From Candidatus Woesearchaeota archaeon (GTDB lineage: Archaea; Nanobdellota; Nanobdellia; Pacearchaeales; GW2011-AR1), in the NCBI GenBank assembly GCA_964497435.1, contig CAZCCD010000002.1, positions 1-32,000 on the forward strand: 32,000 nt of DNA, read 5' to 3'. This document shows, piece after piece, positions 1,885-30,799 of the stretch. The position numbers and the translations under genes are program-made. Within the stretch, counting starts at the first letter, position 1; each line of letters opens with the position of its first letter. The notes under the pieces are model-generated. The model ran no database searches. It was not told where the DNA came from and saw nothing but the letters and a program-made list of their open reading frames with translations.

Positions 1885-3036
1885 ATGTTCTCCAAACTCA
1901 AAGAAAAATTAAAAAGTTGGACAAAAAAACTCACTGAAAAAGCAGAAAAAATAGAAGAAACTCCAGAAAAAGAACTTAAAGTACCTATGAAGTTCGAACC
2001 GGGCTTGCAAAAATATGAACCTGATTTAGAAAAACTCCAAGAAAAAATTGAAGAAATAAAAGAAGAAACCAGAGAAATAAAAAAAGAGATTAAAGAAAAA
2101 GAACTAGAAAAGAAAATAGAGATTATTGAAAAAAAGGAAGAGGAAAAACCAGGCTTCTTTAAAAAATTGGTTTCTAAAATATCTAAAGTAAAAATATCTG
2201 AAAAAGAATTTGAGGTTTATGAAGAGGAGTTAAAAATGCTTCTTTTAGAAAATAATGTTGCATTCGAAGTTGTAGAAAAAATAATAGAAAGGCTAAAAGA
2301 AGAAATAGTTGGCAAGGAGTTTTTAAAAAAAGAGATTGAAGATGAAATAAAAGACACATTAAAAATTATAATAGAAGAAGTAATAATCGAGCCTTTTAAC
2401 ATTATTGATAAAATTAAAGGAAAATCTCAAGACCAGGTTAGAGAGCCATTTGTAATTTTATTTTGCGGGATAAATGGAACTGGCAAGACAACGACAATAG
2501 CAAAAATTGCAAGCCACATGAAAAAAAATAAATTAAAGGTTATTTTAGCTGCCGCAGACACTTTTAGGGCAGCCTCAATAGAACAGTTAAAAAAACACGC
2601 TGAAAAAATAGATGTTAAAGTCGTTTCTCATGATTACGGAAGTGATCCTGCTGCTGTTGGTTTTGATGCAATAAAATATGCCAAAAAAAATTTCATGGAT
2701 GTTGTATTAATAGATACTGCAGGAAGAATGCATACTTCAAAAAATCTTTTAAAAGAGATGGAAAAAATATCAAGAGTTTGCAAGCCTGATTTAAAATTGT
2801 TTATAGGAGAAAGCATTACTGGAAATGATTCAATAGAGCAAGCTAAGAGTTTTGATTGGGCAATAGGAATTGATGGCATTGTCCTGACTAAGGCAGATGT
2901 TGATGAAAAAGGCGGGACAGCTTTATCACTTGGATATGTCACAAAAAAACCAATTTTATATCTTGGAACAGGCCAGGATTATGATGACATTGAGGTCTTT
3001 GACAAGAAGAAGTTTGTTAAGGAGCTTGGACTTTAA
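1885..3036 (+). CDS. ftsY: Signal recognition particle receptor FtsY
   Basis: SRP-GTPase motifs GINGTGKTTT, DTAGR and TKAD. E/K-rich N-terminal A domain. 383 aa. Confidence 0.95.
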   Translation: MFSKLKEKLKSWTKKLTEKAEKIEETPEKELKVPMKFEPGLQKYEPDLEKLQEKIEEIKEETREIKKEIKEKELEKKIEIIEKKEEEKPGFFKKLVSKISKVKISEKEFEVYEEELKMLLLENNVAFEVVEKIIERLKEEIVGKEFLKKEIEDEIKDTLKIIIEEVIIEPFNIIDKIKGKSQDQVREPFVILFCGINGTGKTTTIAKIASHMKKNKLKVILAAADTFRAASIEQLKKHAEKIDVKVVSHDYGSDPAAVGFDAIKYAKKNFMDVVLIDTAGRMHTSKNLLKEMEKISRVCKPDLKLFIGESITGNDSIEQAKSFDWAIGIDGIVLTKADVDEKGGTALSLGYVTKKPILYLGTGQDYDDIEVFDKKKFVKELGL

Positions 3037-3251
3037 TTATTTGGTTCTTCAAGTAATGTTCCTAATTCAGTTAAAGTCAGCCTTCTATTCCTAATGCCGG
3101 TTTCACTGTGTAAAAAATCGCCAGGAAGAGCTTCCATATTTTCTTCACAATCATAACTAACTTCTTCGTAACCCAAACTCCTGTGTGCATTAGCCATTAA
3201 ACTAAAATCCTTTCTCAATTGAGACATCTCAGAATAAACATCATTTACCAT
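3033..3251 (-). CDS. Hypothetical 72-aa protein
   Basis: Only ORF filling the ftsY-srp54 gap. TATA-like box (3269-3280) about 24 nt upstream of its ATG. Stop codon overlaps the ftsY stop by 4 nt. No family recognised. Confidence 0.4.
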   Translation of the reverse strand: MVNDVYSEMSQLRKDFSLMANAHRSLGYEEVSYDCEENMEALPGDFLHSETGIRNRRLTLTELGTLLEEPNN

Positions 3252-3313
3252 TATAATTGCCTCTTTTGATTATATATAAAATCTTTAATTTAAAAATCTT
3301 GCGAAACCCAAAA

Positions 3314-3321
3314 TTTATTAA
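3314..3321 (+). promoter_or_regulatory. Candidate TATA box driving the structured srp54 leader or an ncRNA
   Basis: aaatttattaacc closely matches the ftsY box aaactttattaacc. It predicts a start near 3345, about 145 nt before the srp54 ATG. No A/T box sits at -26 of srp54 itself. Confidence 0.35.
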
Positions 3322-3344
3322 CCTCTATTTTACTTGTTCTTCTG

Positions 3345-3490
3345 TACAGACTTTCATCGAAGGCAACGAGAGTTTACACGAGATAATCCAAAAGCGAGTG
3401 TGGGCTCTAGCAAAAAGAAAGTCGCTTGAGGGATCAAAGAGTTTCGTAAACTCACTCGTTTCCCTTCGGGAAAAACCGTAGGTTTTTAAC
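3345..3490 (+). promoter_or_regulatory. GC-enriched structured 5' leader of srp54, or an independent small RNA
   Basis: Long-range pairing gagagtttac (3368-3377) with gtaaactcactc (3446-3457). Local hairpins gagttt-cgt-aaactc, tttccc-ttc-gggaaa and aaaacc-gta-ggtttt. Contains family-2 repeat blocks shared with 6231-6383. Confidence 0.45.
3471..3489 (+). promoter_or_regulatory. Conserved 19-nt hairpin motif AAAAACCGTAGGTTTTTAA, 1 nt upstream of the srp54 ATG
   Basis: Identical 19-mer at 8148-8166 in the same position relative to the rps15 ATG. Inverted repeat AAAACC/GGTTTT encloses an AGGT (SD-like) core. Confidence 0.6.
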
Positions 3491-4852
3491 ATGTTAGAGA
3501 AACTCGGAGAAATAATAAGAAAGGCAACAAACAAGATAGCCAATGCTATATTTCTTGACAAAAATCTAGTTGATTCAATAATAAGAGATTTGCAAAGGGC
3601 TTTGATTGAGGCAGATGTAAATATACAATTAGTCAAAGACTTATCAGACAAGTTAAAAAAAATCGCCTTTGACGAGAGGATTAAAGGAATAGAAAAAAAA
3701 GAACATTTAATTAAAGTCCTCCATGACGAATTAATAAATATTCTTGGAGAGTACAAGCCTTTGACTCTTGAAAAAGGTCAAAACAGAATTTTATTTCTTG
3801 GTTTGTATGGGGCTGGAAAAACCAGCTCGATAGCAAAACTCGGAAATTATTATGCTAAAAGAGGAAACAAAGTTGCCTTAATTGGTTTAGATGTCCACAG
3901 GCCAGCAGCCTCAGAACAATTAAAGCAGTTAGCTGATAAAAATCATCTTACTTGTTTTATAGAACTTGAAGAAAAAAACCCTTTAAATATCTGGAAAAAA
4001 TATGAAAAAACTCTTAAAGAGTATGATTTAATTTTAATTGATACAGCAGGAAGGCATACACTTGATAAAGAGCTTGTTGAAGAAATAAAAACTCTTTCTA
4101 GAGAAATAAAGCCAAGTCATTCAATTTTAATTTTGCCGGCAGACATTGGACAGGCAGCAAAAAAACAATCAAAAGAATTTAAAGAAACAGTGAATATATC
4201 AGGAGTAATTATAACTAGAATGGATTCTACAGCAAAAGGAGGAGGAGCTTTAACAGCATGCAATGAGACAAAGGCTCCTGTCCATTTCATAGGAACAGGT
4301 GAAAAAATAAATGATATAGAAGAATTCAATCCAAAATCATTTTTATCAAGACTTTTAGGAATGGGTGATTTAGAAACATTAATAGAAAAAATAAGGTCAG
4401 TAACAGGGGAAAAAGAGCAAGAGGAATTAAAGGCTAAGCTTGAAGAAGGCAAGATTTCATTAGAAGATGTCATTGAGCAGGTAAAATCAATGGAAGAGAT
4501 TGGAGGCTTAGATAAAATAAAAAGCATGATACCTGGTTTTGGAAAAGCAAAAATTCCGGAAAACGCATTAGAAAGCCAGCAAGAAAAAATATCAAAATGG
4601 GAGCATATTTTAAAAAGCATGACTAAAGAAGAAAGAGAAAACCCTGAGTTATTGAAAAAGGAACATTCGAGAATAACAAGAATTGCACAAGGAGCAGGAG
4701 TCCATACTAGCGACATAAAATCCCTGCTTAAACAATATGATTTGTTAAGTGAAATGATAAACTCACAATCTGATTTTGATATGTCTAAAGGCCTTTCACA
4801 GAAACAAATGCAGAAGCTCGCTAAGAAATTCGGGAAAAAAATGAGGATTTAA
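3491..4852 (+). CDS. srp54: Signal recognition particle protein SRP54
   Basis: N-terminus MLEKLGE. Motifs GLYGAGKTSS, DTAGR and TRMD. C-terminal M domain. 453 aa. Confidence 0.95.
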   Translation: MLEKLGEIIRKATNKIANAIFLDKNLVDSIIRDLQRALIEADVNIQLVKDLSDKLKKIAFDERIKGIEKKEHLIKVLHDELINILGEYKPLTLEKGQNRILFLGLYGAGKTSSIAKLGNYYAKRGNKVALIGLDVHRPAASEQLKQLADKNHLTCFIELEEKNPLNIWKKYEKTLKEYDLILIDTAGRHTLDKELVEEIKTLSREIKPSHSILILPADIGQAAKKQSKEFKETVNISGVIITRMDSTAKGGGALTACNETKAPVHFIGTGEKINDIEEFNPKSFLSRLLGMGDLETLIEKIRSVTGEKEQEELKAKLEEGKISLEDVIEQVKSMEEIGGLDKIKSMIPGFGKAKIPENALESQQEKISKWEHILKSMTKEERENPELLKKEHSRITRIAQGAGVHTSDIKSLLKQYDLLSEMINSQSDFDMSKGLSQKQMQKLAKKFGKKMRI

Positions 4853-4965
4853 TATTAACCAATATAGAATTTCTTTAAATTAAGAGGATGGGATCTTTCA
4901 TATTCATAACACCGTCTTGCTAATTCTGAAACTAAAAATTATAAAATAAAACTATACAAAATTGA

Positions 4966-5634
4966 CTAATCTGTAGAAAACATAATTCCGGCTTCTAAAA
5001 CTCCCCCACCAATATCTAATTCCTGGCCAAAATCATTTGTAATATTCACAGATCTTCCAGAAGTCTCAATATAGAGAACTTTTTTCTTATCATCATCCAG
5101 AGCTATGTCTAACCCCAAAACAACAAGAGGTCCGACCCCGCCAAAACTTCCACTGGCTGAAGCAGTCTCACCTCCACCACTAATAGATAGTTCCTCTTTC
5201 ATATTGATATATGAAACCCCTCCACCAATTCTAAAATTCACACTCTTTCCTGGAAATACATAAAATCCGGCAAGTTCTCCTTGAAGCATTGTAATTTTTG
5301 CACTAGCATTTTCGATAATATTGTCTGGATCATAAATAAAAGGGTTTCCGTTTTTTTGTCCATAAGCTAAGGCTCCTTCTATGGTAAAGTGTTTTGAATT
5401 ATTAAAACTCACATTTCCCCTTATCCTTGGAACTGTCCCGTATATCTCTTGAAAAGCTTTGTCAGCGCCGTTATACATTCCAATTCCCCCTCCAAAATAA
5501 GTCCTTTGCTTAAATTCTTCTTGAGCCTCTTGGTTATTATTTTTATCTTGTGCATAAGCAGAATTAAAAAAAGGTGTTGTTAAAGTCCCTGCAACAGACA
5601 ATGGAATTAATAACTTTTTAACTAATCCTTTCAT
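4966..5634 (-). CDS. Secreted OMP-like protein: predicted 8-stranded beta-barrel, bacterial OmpA-TM/OmpX/OmpW-like pattern
   Basis: Start moved to the internal ATG at 5634 (MKGLVKK...), giving signal peptide ...FFNSAYA|QD. Eight amphipathic Gly/aromatic-rich strands; C-terminal ...LEAGIMFSTD. TATA-like box at 5655-5665. Confidence 0.55.
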   Translation of the reverse strand: MKGLVKKLLIPLSVAGTLTTPFFNSAYAQDKNNNQEAQEEFKQRTYFGGGIGMYNGADKAFQEIYGTVPRIRGNVSFNNSKHFTIEGALAYGQKNGNPFIYDPDNIIENASAKITMLQGELAGFYVFPGKSVNFRIGGGVSYINMKEELSISGGGETASASGSFGGVGPLVVLGLDIALDDDKKKVLYIETSGRSVNITNDFGQELDIGGGVLEAGIMFSTD

Positions 5635-5654
5635 AATAAAATTTGAAAGATAAT

Positions 5655-5665
5655 CTATATAAATA
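5655..5665 (-). promoter_or_regulatory. TATA-like box for the OMP-like gene
   Basis: ctatataaata centred about 26 nt upstream of the ATG at 5634. It supports the shorter start. Confidence 0.35.
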
Positions 5666-5699
5666 TTTGTGGTTTGCAAAATAGATATAAAAACATAAA

Positions 5700-6614
5700 A
5701 TGTCATCAAAAATCCTTGCGCAAGGCGCAGAAGCAAAAATTATTCTCTCAAATAATTTCGTAACAAAAGACAGAATAAAAAAATCCTATAGACTCCAAGA
5801 GCTTGATGAAAAGATACGAAAGCAAAGAACAAAGGCAGAAAAAAAACTTCTAGAAAAAGCATCCAAAGTGATTAATGTGCCAAAAATAATAACTGAAAAT
5901 AGCTCTGCTTCGCAGAAAATTAAGTTAACAATTAATAAAAAATCTGCGAACCCTAGTGAGCAGCTAAATAAAATTGAAATGGAGTATATTTCTGGTAAAA
6001 GATTATCCGATAATTTAGATAAGTTTTCTTTTCAAATTCAAAAACAAATCGCGAAATTGATCGGTCAAAACATATCCAAGCTCCACGATAATAACATAAT
6101 CCACGGAGATTTAACAACTAGCAATATGATTTTTGTAGAAGATTTGGATGTTAATAATTTAAGTAATACTCCAAACAGAAAAAATAACTTTAAATCAACT
6201 CATCAAAAATATACTGAGTTAACGTCTTCTCAGCGAAGAAATCTGGCAAAGCCGATTTCGAAGCAAAATCAATCAGCGAGCGACAGCGAGCCTAGTAGGG
6301 GTGGGCGAGAGTTTGCACGAGCCAAGTTTACATCAATCTTGAGTGCGGGCTCGAGTTGGTCGAGGAGTGGTGGTGGGAATAAATTTACCATATTCTTCAT
6401 AGACTTTGGCCTTGGCTTCATAAGCAACAAGCTAGAAGACAAGGCAGTTGATTTGCATTTATTAAAACAAGCTTTAGAAGCAAAACACTATAAACACTGT
6501 AAAGAATTGTGGAATTCAATTGAACAAGGATACAAAACATCTAAAGATTCTAAAGCTGTTCTCGAAAGATTAAAGGCTGTCGAAAGAAGGGGGAGATATA
6601 AGGAGAGGTATTAA
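5700..6614 (+). CDS. bud32: Bud32/PRPK (KEOPS) atypical protein kinase carrying two in-frame insertions
   Basis: Motifs ILAQGAEAKI, IEMEYISGK, HGDLTTSNM, FIDFGLG, EDKAVDLHL and ERRGRY. 304 aa against the roughly 200-220 aa usual for the family. Extra segments at about aa 68-89 and about aa 147-228. Confidence 0.85.
   Translation: MSSKILAQGAEAKIILSNNFVTKDRIKKSYRLQELDEKIRKQRTKAEKKLLEKASKVINVPKIITENSSASQKIKLTINKKSANPSEQLNKIEMEYISGKRLSDNLDKFSFQIQKQIAKLIGQNISKLHDNNIIHGDLTTSNMIFVEDLDVNNLSNTPNRKNNFKSTHQKYTELTSSQRRNLAKPISKQNQSASDSEPSRGGREFARAKFTSILSAGSSWSRSGGGNKFTIFFIDFGLGFISNKLEDKAVDLHLLKQALEAKHYKHCKELWNSIEQGYKTSKDSKAVLERLKAVERRGRYKERY
5902..5972 (+). repeat. Family-1 palindromic repeat copy inside the bud32 reading frame
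   Basis: Inverted arms ttcgcaga (5909-5916) and tctgcgaa (5943-5950). gttaacaattaa, aaatctgcgaac, agtgag and ctaaataa blocks are collinear with 28492-28537. Confidence 0.6.
6231..6383 (+). repeat. Family-2 GC-enriched repeat segment inside the bud32 reading frame
   Basis: cgagagtttgcacgag (6306-6321) vs cgagagtttacacgag (3367-3382). gagtgcgggctc (6341-6352) vs gagtgtgggctc (3396-3407). gatttcgaagcaa (6254-6266) vs catcgaaggcaa (3355-3366). Blocks occur in the same order in both loci. Confidence 0.55.
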
Positions 6615-6649
6615 CCAGAGAAAATCATAATTTATTAATTTTTATGTAA

Positions 6650-6663
6650 AAATAGCCCCTCCA
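6650..6663 (-). repeat. 14-nt direct repeat copying the 3' end of tRNA-Gln
   Basis: aaatagcccctcca at 6650-6663 equals 6775-6788, which is the last 11 nt of the tRNA plus 3 flanking nt. Confidence 0.7.
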
Positions 6664-6699
6664 ACTCCCAACCCCACTTTGTTAATAATAATTAGAAAG

Positions 6700-6765
6700 T
6701 CAAAGTGAAATTGCTCGGGATTCGAAAGTAAAATTGTTTCTGTGTTACGCGAACCAGTTATGGCT
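6700..6765 (+). repeat. Scrambled copy of the GC-enriched repeat family between the tRNA-end duplicates
   Basis: caaagtgaaattgct, gggattcgaaagtaaaa and gcgaacc resemble blocks at 1757-1772, 6254-6267 and 5946-5952. Confidence 0.4.
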
Positions 6766-6777
6766 TTCAACCATAAA

Positions 6778-6850
6778 TAGCCCCTCCAGGATTCGAACCT
6801 GGGTCGCAAGGACCAAAACCTTGCATACTTGACCGCTGTACTAAGGGGCT
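6778..6850 (-). tRNA. tRNA-Gln (anticodon UUG), 73 nt, no encoded CCA
   Basis: Folded by hand. 7-bp acceptor AGCCCCT/AGGGGCT, D stem GTAC/GTAT with GG in the loop, anticodon stem CAAGG/CCTTG with loop TTTTGGT, T arm CCAGG-TTCGAAT-CCTGG, discriminator A. Confidence 0.9.
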
Positions 6851-7203
6851 ATAAAAAGAAAACTTATAATTAATTTATAAGGGTTTTGTTGCGGTAAAAC
6901 CTGCCACAGGATTGCAATTAAGAGAATTATCCACGGAAAAGCATAATCCACAATATTGGCTACAATCTTTTTATTAATGTTAAACCCCCAGTATTCTAAT
7001 ATAAAACCATACATTGTTTCCTCCCTCTTTTTAGATCTAAATTGCTTTATAGTCAAAATACAATTACCAAATATAATCAGTTGCAAGTAATATAAAAGAA
7101 TAAAGACCAAAATAACCTTCCAACTCAACCAAAAAGGAGAACTCCAAATCAAAAGAACGATTAACAAATGTATCCCAAAATAAACCTCCCATTCACGTTT
7201 CAT
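6841..7203 (-). CDS. Small polytopic membrane protein, unknown function
   Basis: 120 aa with about 4 hydrophobic helices. The last codons (..FIAP*) overlap the 5' 10 nt of tRNA-Gln. 5-nt gap to the upstream ParA/MinD gene. Confidence 0.5.
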   Translation of the reverse strand: MKREWEVYFGIHLLIVLLIWSSPFWLSWKVILVFILLYYLQLIIFGNCILTIKQFRSKKREETMYGFILEYWGFNINKKIVANIVDYAFPWIILLIAILWQVLPQQNPYKLIISFLFIAP

Positions 7204-9874: not shown

Positions 9875-10192
9875 TTATCTAATCTTACCAAGATAAGTCA
9901 GAGTAATTAAATCAGGATCAACATAATCTACATTAAACCTTATAGTATAAAATAAAATTTCTTTCTTATCAGAGGAGTAATAGGTATTAACAGCAGTGCT
10001 GAAGACAGAAGATAAAATAAATCTTCCTTCATTTTCAGTCATCCCATTATATTTAATTACAACATAGTCCTCGGAGGCAAATGCAAAAAACTTCTTCGGT
10101 TTAGGAGTAAGATTTATCGTTCCAATTTCGCCCACCTTAATAGTAGCAGATCTTTTATCATGAGAAGCATAATTTAGAACAGCTATTAGCAA
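9875..10192 (-). CDS. Hypothetical small beta-rich protein; the N-terminal signal peptide appears to sit in a different frame
   Basis: ORF starts at TTG right after a TAG. An ATG at 10235 in a different reading frame encodes MKRTLAATLITSLLVANSC.., which looks like a signal peptide. Confidence 0.4.
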   Translation of the reverse strand: MLIAVLNYASHDKRSATIKVGEIGTINLTPKPKKFFAFASEDYVVIKYNGMTENEGRFILSSVFSTAVNTYYSSDKKEILFYTIRFNVDYVDPDLITLTYLGKIR

Positions 10193-10287
10193 CTAATAAA
10201 GAAGTTATTAAAGTAGCCGCCAATGTTCTTTTCATAACCTATCAACTATAATTTAGTTTTTAACCATTTCTACCATTCATCACAACC

Positions 10288-10294
10288 TTTAAAA
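10288..10294 (+). promoter_or_regulatory. TATA-like box for aIF2-alpha
   Basis: TTTAAAA centred 26 nt upstream of the ATG at 10317. Confidence 0.35.
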
Positions 10295-28491: not shown

Positions 28492-28537
28492 GTTAACAAT
28501 TAAATAAATCTGCGAACAGAGTGAGACTAAATAATTT
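28492..28537 (+). repeat. Intergenic twin of the bud32-internal family-1 repeat
   Basis: gttaacaattaa (28492-28503), aaatctgcgaac (28506-28517), agtgag and ctaaataa blocks occur in the same order as 5924-5970. Confidence 0.6.
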
Positions 28538-30780: not shown

Positions 30781-30799
30781 CTCACTCGTAAACTCGCTC
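30781..30799 (+). repeat. Fragment of the family-2 repeat
   Basis: ctcactcgtaaactcgctc shares tcgtaaactc and ctcactcg with 3443-3458. Its reverse complement, gagcgagtttacgagtgag, resembles 3367-3382 and 6306-6321. Confidence 0.4.

Follow-up and report, generated by a model that had tools for sequence, protein, structure and literature searches.

GC-rich hairpin repeats as the probable source of in-frame loop insertions in Bud32 of a DPANN archaeon

To our knowledge, in-frame selfish DNA in essential genes has hitherto been an oddity confined to Rickettsia and a handful of bacteria. In yeast mitochondria, GC clusters are GC-rich palindromes of an AT-rich genome that lie mostly between genes, with optional in-frame clusters in var1, and that are polymorphic between strains. 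In archaea, non-canonical tRNA introns and the bulge-helix-bulge (BHB) intron of crenarchaeal cbf5 are known, and for the Thermoproteales it has been proposed that tRNA introns transpose from one gene to another. We use the Rickettsia palindromic elements (RPE; summarised in PMC10969869 after Ogata et al. 2000) as our main comparison system, together with REP/BIME sequences, REPINs with RAYT (Y1/HUH), and the IS200/IS605-derived PATEs of haloarchaea (PMC3733652, PMC3116915, PMC3119063). [quoted passage not shown] Here, we analyzed 32,000 nucleotides (nt) of a Candidatus Woesearchaeota archaeon (positions 1 to 32,000 of contig CAZCCD010000002.1, assembly GCA_964497435.1; hereafter the window), in which bud32, the gene for the KEOPS kinase/ATPase, carries 81 extra codons. 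We consider it probable that these codons are a mosaic of GC-rich hairpin interspersed repeats, here called modules B and X, which form an archaeal counterpart of RPE and are translated together with the host gene.

The archaeal modules and RPE have several features in common. Both are short, multi-copy hairpin repeats of small, AT-rich genomes of host-dependent cells; both lie in spacers and, unusually often, in frame within unrelated housekeeping genes, where they supply fold-compatible extra peptide segments; and both comprise several families or modules, with no transposase encoded by the element. They differ in four respects. First, the archaeal modules belong to DPANN and thus to another domain of life, and the claim is one of analogy and not of sequence homology, which is not to be expected. 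Second, the archaeal units are shorter (about 60-75 nt for X and about 75 nt for B, compared with about 100-150 nt for RPE) and are combined as mosaics. Third, the archaeal hairpins have a tandem G.A closure, one-sided G.U pairs, G-tract flanks, and, in some cases, remnants of tRNA 3' ends. Fourth, archaeal copies are found in at least three frames and both orientations, whereas RPE have one conserved peptide per family. The yeast GC clusters, for their part, have an organellar eukaryotic host, other sequences, and another proposed mobility, and have not been reported across many housekeeping genes.

In roughly 40 relatives of the window's Bud32, seven residues separate the motifs DLTTSNM and FFIDFG; in the window, the spacing is 88 residues, and the insert at this position (site 2) therefore comprises 81 codons (Table 1). 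The initial annotation of this DNA had recognized the expansion, which is real, and had placed it at 6138-6383 with about 82 codons, bounds that are refined here. Its description of the segment as GC-enriched and free of stops is borne out: the insert contains no stop codon, and the region 6229-6390 is the strongest GC island of the window outside the tRNA, with a GC content of up to 0.58 in 60-nt windows compared with 0.31 for the whole window. The best homologues of the protein are Bud32 of Pacearchaeota/Nanoarchaeota, and in a close relative (L053; surveyed loci are given L numbers), site 2 is empty and the insert at a second position, site 1, is missing as well. Pfam returned weak Pkinase and RIO1 matches, under the cut-offs of both, because the insert splits the domain. 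In an AlphaFold model made with 23 aligned homologues, a structure prediction that the initial annotation had suggested, the kinase core has a predicted local distance difference test (pLDDT) score above 90, residues 155-225 of the insert score 33-45, and residues 73-81, in the site-1 insert, score below 50. The strands beta7 (143-147) and beta8 (229-233) flank the insert. The model predicts that the Bud32 fold is intact despite the insert, the position of which appears compatible with the fold as a low-confidence loop leading from beta7 to beta8.

The insert shares sequence blocks with the region upstream of srp54. The 16-mer CGAGAGTTTRCACGAG is found solely at 3367-3382 and 6306-6321 in the 32 kb, where 0.09 matches would be expected by chance even with three mismatches allowed, and the 12-mer GAGTGYGGGCTC is found solely at 3396-3407 and 6341-6352; the two stand in identical order at both places. 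The recurrence that had been pointed out initially is thus confirmed, each block being present exactly twice and not by chance. Each block contains one mismatch (GCAC to ACAC and GTGC to GTGU, i.e. G>A and C>U), and together these amount to a compensatory change from a G-C to an A-U pair in a single helix. A third pair of blocks (gatttcgaagcaa and catcgaaggcaa) is a weaker match, yet agrees with module B in its 3' flank. Both the 16-mer and the 12-mer lie within module X of the insert, and an unfiltered covariance-model scan of the window detected exactly three copies of X: the one in bud32, one between ftsY and srp54, and one near a tRNA-Gln gene (Table 1). All three belonged to the training set of the model. 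The last of them corresponds to a fragment that had been noted at 6700-6765; a full copy exists there, with its real extent displaced and on the minus strand. A further fragment (30781-30799) resembles one arm only, was given no match by the covariance model, and was rejected as a family member. The copy in bud32 and the copy downstream of ftsY have in common an arm variant, AGUUUrCAC/GUGyGGGCU, which is also carried by a copy in L072 (1934-1999) that lies 23 nt past ftsY. Because srp54 is not adjacent in L072, the window copy at 3359-3421 is not an srp54-specific leader: of the "structured srp54 leader" described initially, the membership in the sequence family stands, and the element is otherwise an ordinary intergenic copy downstream of ftsY. 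Rfam 15, run over the window at gathering thresholds, passed tRNA-Gln alone, and a relaxed search of 3000-7000, up to E = 10, returned nothing relevant for the insert or the srp54-upstream region; signal recognition particle RNA, RNase P RNA, and a riboswitch were dropped as identities for the srp54 "leader" after these empty results.

Single-sequence folds of the insert and of the srp54-upstream region barely beat shuffles (z = -1.45 and -2.13, respectively), and the hairpin became convincing because comparative data were added. From the outside in, X consists of a closing C-G pair, tandem G.A/A.G pairs, a stem of about 10 base pairs (bp) with the arms GCGAYUUCGY (5') and RCGRRGUCGC (3'), and an AT-rich inner part, often with a small second hairpin. 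Over 88 copies, 90.2% of the cells of a 12-pair stem are paired, compared with 23-58% when the partners are slid by 1-3 columns; both sides change in seven of the pairs, one column pair being represented by 65 G-C and 18 A-U combinations; and RNAfold gives the same stem on individual copies. G.U pairs are frequent, always with U on the 5' arm, and one strand therefore forms a much better hairpin than its complement does. We conclude that X has a conserved, covarying, and strand-specific hairpin. The two arms are inverted repeats, and the outer flanks are direct G-tracts: GGGTGGG upstream and GGnGGG downstream accompany about one third to one half of 85 copies, with GGGTGGG on each side, and an isolated flank repeat, AACC on both sides of X, is seen in L252. 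A reading of the G.A motifs as k-turns was ruled out, the loops being symmetric and without a 3-nt bulge. We also observed that the G runs on both sides of X (6296-6305 and 6356-6377: GGGGTGGG .. GGTGGTGGG), as in the flanks of many copies, are G-quadruplex-like in an AT-rich genome. Further, in L197, L215, L216, L224, L244, and L272, an intergenic X is nested in a larger conserved unit, with ..GCGATTTCC..GGATTG before it and TAAAGAATCGC..CACAGGAACAGGAAGGGAAATTCC after it, which suggests further modules of the mosaic system.

Module B precedes X in the site-2 insert, and its layout also reads TTAAC..CTCAGCGAAG, hairpin, CGAAGCA..ATCAATC..GCGAGCGAnAGCGAGCC (nhmmer E = 8.6e-22; 86-94% DNA identity to L007, L003, and L016). 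The stem covaries across genomes (GAAATC/GATTTC and GAAACT/AGTTTC; GGC/GCC versus AGC/GCT) and, in L006, L012, and L009, the hairpin is replaced by an unrelated GCGCC/GGCGC stem; the flanks GC-GRA and GRA-GC remain constant while the stem changes. When the window was compared with L007, L003, and L015, third-codon identity was 0.75-0.79 in module B versus 0.47-0.48 in the Bud32 core, where third positions are saturated; in module B, they equal the first two positions in conservation. What is constrained, or recent, is therefore the nucleotide sequence and not the peptide. Such conservation would fit selection on the hairpin, repeated re-insertion, or gene conversion among copies, three possibilities that are inseparable here. 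Module B also has a hairpin-less short form, which accounts for the greater part of the site-1 insert of the window and recurs as an intergenic copy at 28494-28536, which resembles 5926-5970. The motifs of the site-1 insert are also seen in L008 and L009 at site 1 and in L007 at site 2, and B-like copies are dispersed in AT-rich metagenome contigs as well.

Many Pacearchaeota/Nanoarchaeota proteins among the 7516 Bud32 homologues are 230-370 residues long, compared with about 200, and in the alignment two turns carry variable inserts, beta7-beta8 (site 2) and beta4-beta5 (site 1), the beta1-beta2 turn and a C-lobe loop being occupied in single genomes. Repeat modules are present at four Bud32 loops, differing by genome and reading frame, and peptide motifs of the inserts jump between sites. 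For example, X at site 2 of the window and at site 1 of L008 is offset by one base in frame, and GGGGTGGGCGAG..hairpin..GAGTTGGTC is read as SRGGREF.. in the former and as VGVGERL.. in the latter. In a survey of the surroundings of bud32 in 80 representative genomes, together with five loci obtained before, a site-2 insert of 19-146 residues was found in 35 bud32 genes, every one of the 35 with a single open frame, and about 50 of the Bud32 genes surveyed had no insert. The 146-residue insert, at the beta7-beta8 turn of L018 (10367-10804), has the look of a folded domain and not of a mosaic of repeats. We counted 12 copies of X in 1.13 Mb from 84 genomes, distributed over seven genomes with 1-3 copies per 4-20 kb locus; X is patchy, i.e. 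a repeat family expanded in some lineages. The insert peptide, used as a protein query, returned no candidates in a search limited by its word index.

Scanning metagenome contigs with the pattern CGAGCGAYTTC-N(20-50)-GTCGSGAGTTG gave 112 loci, of which about 95 lie in contigs of 26-39% GC and about 17 in GC-rich contigs; the latter number matches a rough estimate of about 14 chance matches. The X-bearing AT-rich contigs are DPANN-like. Among 95 copies, 73 are without a long open reading frame (ORF) on both sides (spacers, gene ends, and contig ends), and 20, or about one fifth, lie within ORFs that extend 40 residues or more to either side. In a second tally that overlaps these 20, 25 copies in ORFs of at least 180 residues were oriented with the gene in 10 cases and against it in 15, in at least three frames per orientation. 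About three of the six frames of an X copy are open, compared with 2.2 in composition-matched shuffles and about one in random AT-rich sequence of the same length. Pfam-confirmed hosts are ThrRS, MnmA, an ELP3-like radical SAM protein, PheRS-beta, Dph5, deoxyhypusine synthase, RsmB/F, a DEAD helicase, and TRM5/TYW2; a PHP-domain protein, a topoisomerase, FtsY, and Bud32 were recognized by eye. ELP3-like genes on four contigs (L240, L251, L294, and L227) carry X at three or four different sites: in the loop before AIxRELHVYGQAL, X lies in opposite orientations in two homologues, and the two others are empty there and carry X elsewhere. Independent insertions are therefore required. The pattern CGAGAGTTTRCACGAG..GAGTRYGGGCTC had zero matches in viral contigs, and no X matches were found in phage and plasmid collections; a looser X pattern (17-18 bases specified) had 107 matches in viral contigs, which we took for chance and neither inspected nor used. 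The repeat family is multi-copy and dispersed across the lineage. Of the options listed in the initial annotation, an RPE-like in-frame element agrees with this distribution, the same family being coding in bud32, non-coding between ftsY and srp54, and present in other genes and spacers of relatives, and a disordered loop gained by repeat capture fits the same data.

These data also bear on the possibility that the hairpins are host-beneficial cis-elements, such as sites for proteins that recognize the G.A motif, stabilizers or terminators of transcript ends, or regulators of translation speed, and that they are kept in bud32 for its mRNA. Nucleotide conservation of 75-94% across hosts with saturated synonymous sites is what such a role would give, as are the covarying stems of B and X, the same variant just past ftsY in the window and in the distant genome L072, and the T runs that follow several copies. 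On the other hand, X is missing within 20 kb of bud32 in 77 of the 84 genomes, and about 50 Bud32 genes do without an insert; positions, orientations, and frames vary between genomes and even within one protein; copies in opposite orientation within genes cannot present the same RNA structure; and a role for the host leaves the spread into many unrelated ORFs unexplained. We therefore regard host-serving elements as a quite unlikely explanation of the family, and some copies may have acquired a secondary, exapted role.

The third copy of X in the window is located within a partial copy of the 3' end of tRNA-Gln, an arrangement seen also in L038, L064, and L069. One or two truncated 3'-end copies (GGnGGGGCTA) follow the intact tRNA-Gln on its strand in the window, L038, L064, L069, L044, and L029, and several of them hold X inside the remnant of the T-loop. 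Six metagenomic copies of X likewise have T-loop-like sequence beside them, and some metagenomic copies have T-loop-like 5' and acceptor-like 3' flanks and then T runs. The tRNA-Gln remnants with X look like leftovers of attachment or integration sites, or like a preference for tRNA-like targets. Several other observations concern tRNA genes and repeats at these loci. tRNA-Gln introns of 90-150 nt after the anticodon, missed by default ARAGORN, are present in L009 (about 7655-7512, minus strand) and L038 (3988-3773, minus strand). A 39-nt stretch is 100% identical between L010 (4854-4892) and L013 (1706-1744), at the 3' end of a Bud32 insert in one case and, in another metagenome-assembled genome, just upstream of an intron-containing tRNA-Val in the other; it may be another tRNA-linked mobile module. 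In L304 (12620-12908), a perfect tandem repeat of a 120-nt unit in 2.4 copies contains one X per unit, and L198 has the same 120-nt unit; it may be real or an assembly artefact.

The proximity of the three window copies, which lie within 3.4 kb, raises the question of whether the bud32 insert was copied locally, by templated repair or gene conversion from the partial tRNA-Gln duplicate and the ftsY-srp54 spacer and not by a transposition-like process, and then drifted as a lineage-specific expansion. The bud32 and spacer copies of one genome match in arm variant, and L006 provides a parallel at the other Bud32 site and with another arm variant: its site-1 insert (10191-10290) shares about 80% identity with a copy located upstream of srp54 (6792-6867), with a compensatory C-G to U-A difference. 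Further, some bud32 copies end in a tRNA 3'-end-like tail (e.g. GAGTTGGTCAGGGGGCTGG in L008), and most copies around bud32 are in or near that gene. Because the same modules are found on separate contigs, in unrelated genes and spacers by the dozen, local copying is not the whole story, and as a full account we consider it highly improbable. It may describe the origin of this particular bud32 copy and is compatible with local hopping of a mobile element; the three neighboring copies, and the pairs of the same variant per genome, fit local hopping as well as templated copying.

We next consider whether the insert is translated. All 35 Bud32 inserts keep an open frame, and 20 genic copies are in frame, compared with at most 2 of 95 that would yield a long ORF on excision (2700 combinations of junctions tried for each copy), a number consistent with chance; we therefore rejected the idea that genic copies of X are gene interruptions that need splicing. 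An intron carries no such constraint, which argues for translation, and the site-2 insert is probably translated as a disordered loop rather than spliced. The opposing view, which the initial annotation had included as an unrecognized BHB mRNA intron, is that the insert or the X/B hairpins are cut from the bud32 mRNA by the tRNA-splicing endonuclease or another activity to leave a short turn in the mature protein. The T-loop remnants that contain X and the T-loop-like flanks of the six metagenomic copies would agree with this, as would a strand-specific hairpin with many G.U pairs, as in a structure read as RNA; BHB introns, too, are short structured inserts in tRNA-like contexts and in an archaeal protein gene. 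Yet a scan of 6090-6430 gave one BHB candidate, which does not span the insert, compared with a mean of 2.25 in shuffled sequence, and the borders of the insert thus carry no such motif. The base of X is a symmetric 2x2 tandem G.A loop and not two 3-nt bulges 4 bp apart; copies occur in genes in both orientations, the opposite one giving the mRNA a weaker, C.A-containing complement; and the frame, which an intron need not keep open, is always kept. The tRNA-like hosts of X are truncated remnants: X as a T-loop intron of real tRNA genes was rejected, deletion in silico with 117 boundary combinations per copy having yielded spurious ARAGORN predictions only and no credible tRNA. Splicing is, on this evidence, a very unlikely explanation. 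X and B fail those defining features of BHB introns that were tested, as they do those of REP/BIME.

Overall, we favor the interpretation that the 81 codons are a captured mosaic of mobile-type repeats, and the following course of events would account for it. A repeat family has multiplied in a subset of AT-rich Nanoarchaeota (Pacearchaeota/Woesearchaeota-type DPANN), with most copies lying between genes, and the intergenic and tRNA-associated copies of X in the window are further copies in the same genome. Copies within genes would survive only in a surface loop, with a length that is a multiple of three and no stop codon, and would then be transcribed and translated with the host gene to give disordered Gly/Ser/Arg-rich loops; a short module of B and a UUCG hairpin likewise occupies a second loop of Bud32. 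The one-sided G.U(T) pairs, together with an apparent lack of terminal inverted repeats and of any clear target duplication, suggest that a hairpin is recognized in single-stranded form, which might take place on single-stranded DNA through an HUH/Y1-type enzyme, as for REP or IS200/IS605-type elements, or through an RNA intermediate. With their strand-specific stem, mosaic modules, and apparent absence of outside inverted repeats, the archaeal elements resemble REP/REPIN or IS200/IS605-type elements more closely than classical MITEs. Like REP sequences and PATEs, they are imperfect palindromes that would be recognized as hairpins on one strand, form mosaics of a few motifs, lie mostly at gene ends, may stabilize transcripts, and appear to lack classical terminal inverted repeats and target duplication. 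They differ from REP in that REP has a GTAG/CGTC tag, in place of which CGAG stands at the start and end of X and GCGAA at those of B, and in that REP is essentially extragenic, whereas about one fifth of X copies are inside ORFs. We take the similarity to REP/RAYT as a possible mechanistic lead and not as membership; no gene for RAYT, TnpA, or TnpB was found, none having been looked for. An extension of this interpretation, which we think unlikely, is that the hairpins represent mobile elements of a new archaeal class, which travel as single-stranded RNA or DNA hairpins and are tied to tRNA genes, entering at the T-loop or 3' end, leaving arrays of truncated tRNA ends, and then moving to spacers and ORFs; the G.A stems would perhaps be handled by RNA-processing or tRNA-binding machinery, and some copies would be removed or be active as RNA. 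If so, the strong presence in Bud32, a tRNA-modification enzyme, would be no coincidence.

Several points weigh against the favored interpretation. Mobility is deduced from apparently independent insertions at differing sites, orientations, and frames and is not directly seen; among the copies, there is no near-identical filled/empty pair and there are no defined ends or clear target-site duplications; and no transposase is associated with the element, no screen of the contigs for transposases having been made. Translation, similarly, is argued from conservation of the frame and not from peptides or transcripts. None of 500 shuffles reached the observed values for the X stem, a test that overstates significance, the copies having been picked by a pattern that fixes much of the stem and being mutually related. 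The census of the window's own genome spans just 32 kb and three copies of X. The copies in the 1.13 Mb around bud32 cluster in or near this gene, and local copying or gene conversion may contribute to X there. Further, the constant G-rich flanks could belong to the element or mark a target that it prefers, and the high conservation of the DNA across very divergent hosts could indicate a host function rather than selfish spread.

The repeats are set in a window of 31% GC with ftsY (1885-3036), srp54 (3491-4852), bud32, tRNA-Gln, and a ParA-like gene, an order common to Pacearchaeota/Woesearchaeota-type genomes. The gene divergent from bud32 (4966-5736, minus strand) has a signal-peptide-like start and, in the precomputed annotation, a weak match to Pfam OMP_b-brl, which is unexpected in an archaeon. 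Coordinates of the features are collected in Table 1.

Table 1. Repeat modules, host gene, and tRNA-Gln features of the window, with truncated tRNA-Gln copies at other loci
Feature	Position	Strand	Basis
bud32 (KEOPS kinase/ATPase), host of repeats	5700-6614	+	304-residue ORF with 7516 homologues
Site-1 insert, beta4-beta5 turn: UUCG hairpin TCTGCTTCGCAGA (5904-5916) and short form of module B (TTAACAATTAATAAAAAATCTGCGAACCCTAGTGAGCAG)	5892-5965	+	
Site-2 insert, 81 in-frame codons, beta7-beta8 turn, from catalytic loop to DFG-like motif	6144-6386	+	Spacing compared with relatives
Module B: TTAAC..CTCAGCGAAG, hairpin, then CGAAGCAAAATCAATCA and GCGAGCGACAGCGAGCC	6219-6292	+	Copies at 13 other loci align
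Module B hairpin, GC-GAA-[GAAAUC U GGC AAA GCC GAUUUC]-GAA-GC	6233-6264	+	Read from sequence and alignment
Module X, long hairpin closed by C-G and tandem G.A/A.G pairs, G-rich flanks	6298-6366	+	Covariance model 55.6 bits, E = 4.5e-12
G-tract tail of site-2 insert (GTGGTGGTGGGAATAAATTT), coding SGGGNKF	6367-6386	+	G-rich flanks typical of X copies
Intergenic X between ftsY and srp54	3359-3421	+	Covariance model 28.7 bits; nhmmer 6.2e-08
X in partial tRNA-Gln 3'-end copy (..TTCGAATCC, X, TGGAGGGGCTA, then T run)	6654-6725	-	Covariance model 40.1 bits
Intact tRNA-Gln(UUG)	6777-6851	-	ARAGORN; Rfam tRNA model 61.9 bits
Truncated tRNA-Gln copies	Window 6640-6745; L038 3640-3735; L064 ~1180-1256; L069 10615-10715; L044 ~3025; L029 ~11450	- (window, L038, L069)	
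Module B short form, intergenic (TTAACAATTAAATAAATCTGCGAACAGAGTGAGACTAAAT)	28494-28536	+	Motif search, then direct reading; no formal significance score

An RPE-like phenomenon in tiny, AT-rich, host-dependent archaea suggests that in-frame repeats of this kind recur wherever genomes are reduced. The repeats would readily supply conserved enzymes with new loops on their surface. They would also affect annotation, by splitting Pfam domains, inflating protein lengths, and creating spurious lineage-specific insertions that serve as phylogenetic markers, and mis-assemblies are possible. Finally, the one-sided, G.A-closed hairpins and the link to tRNA ends would be handles for identifying the enzyme that mobilizes them.

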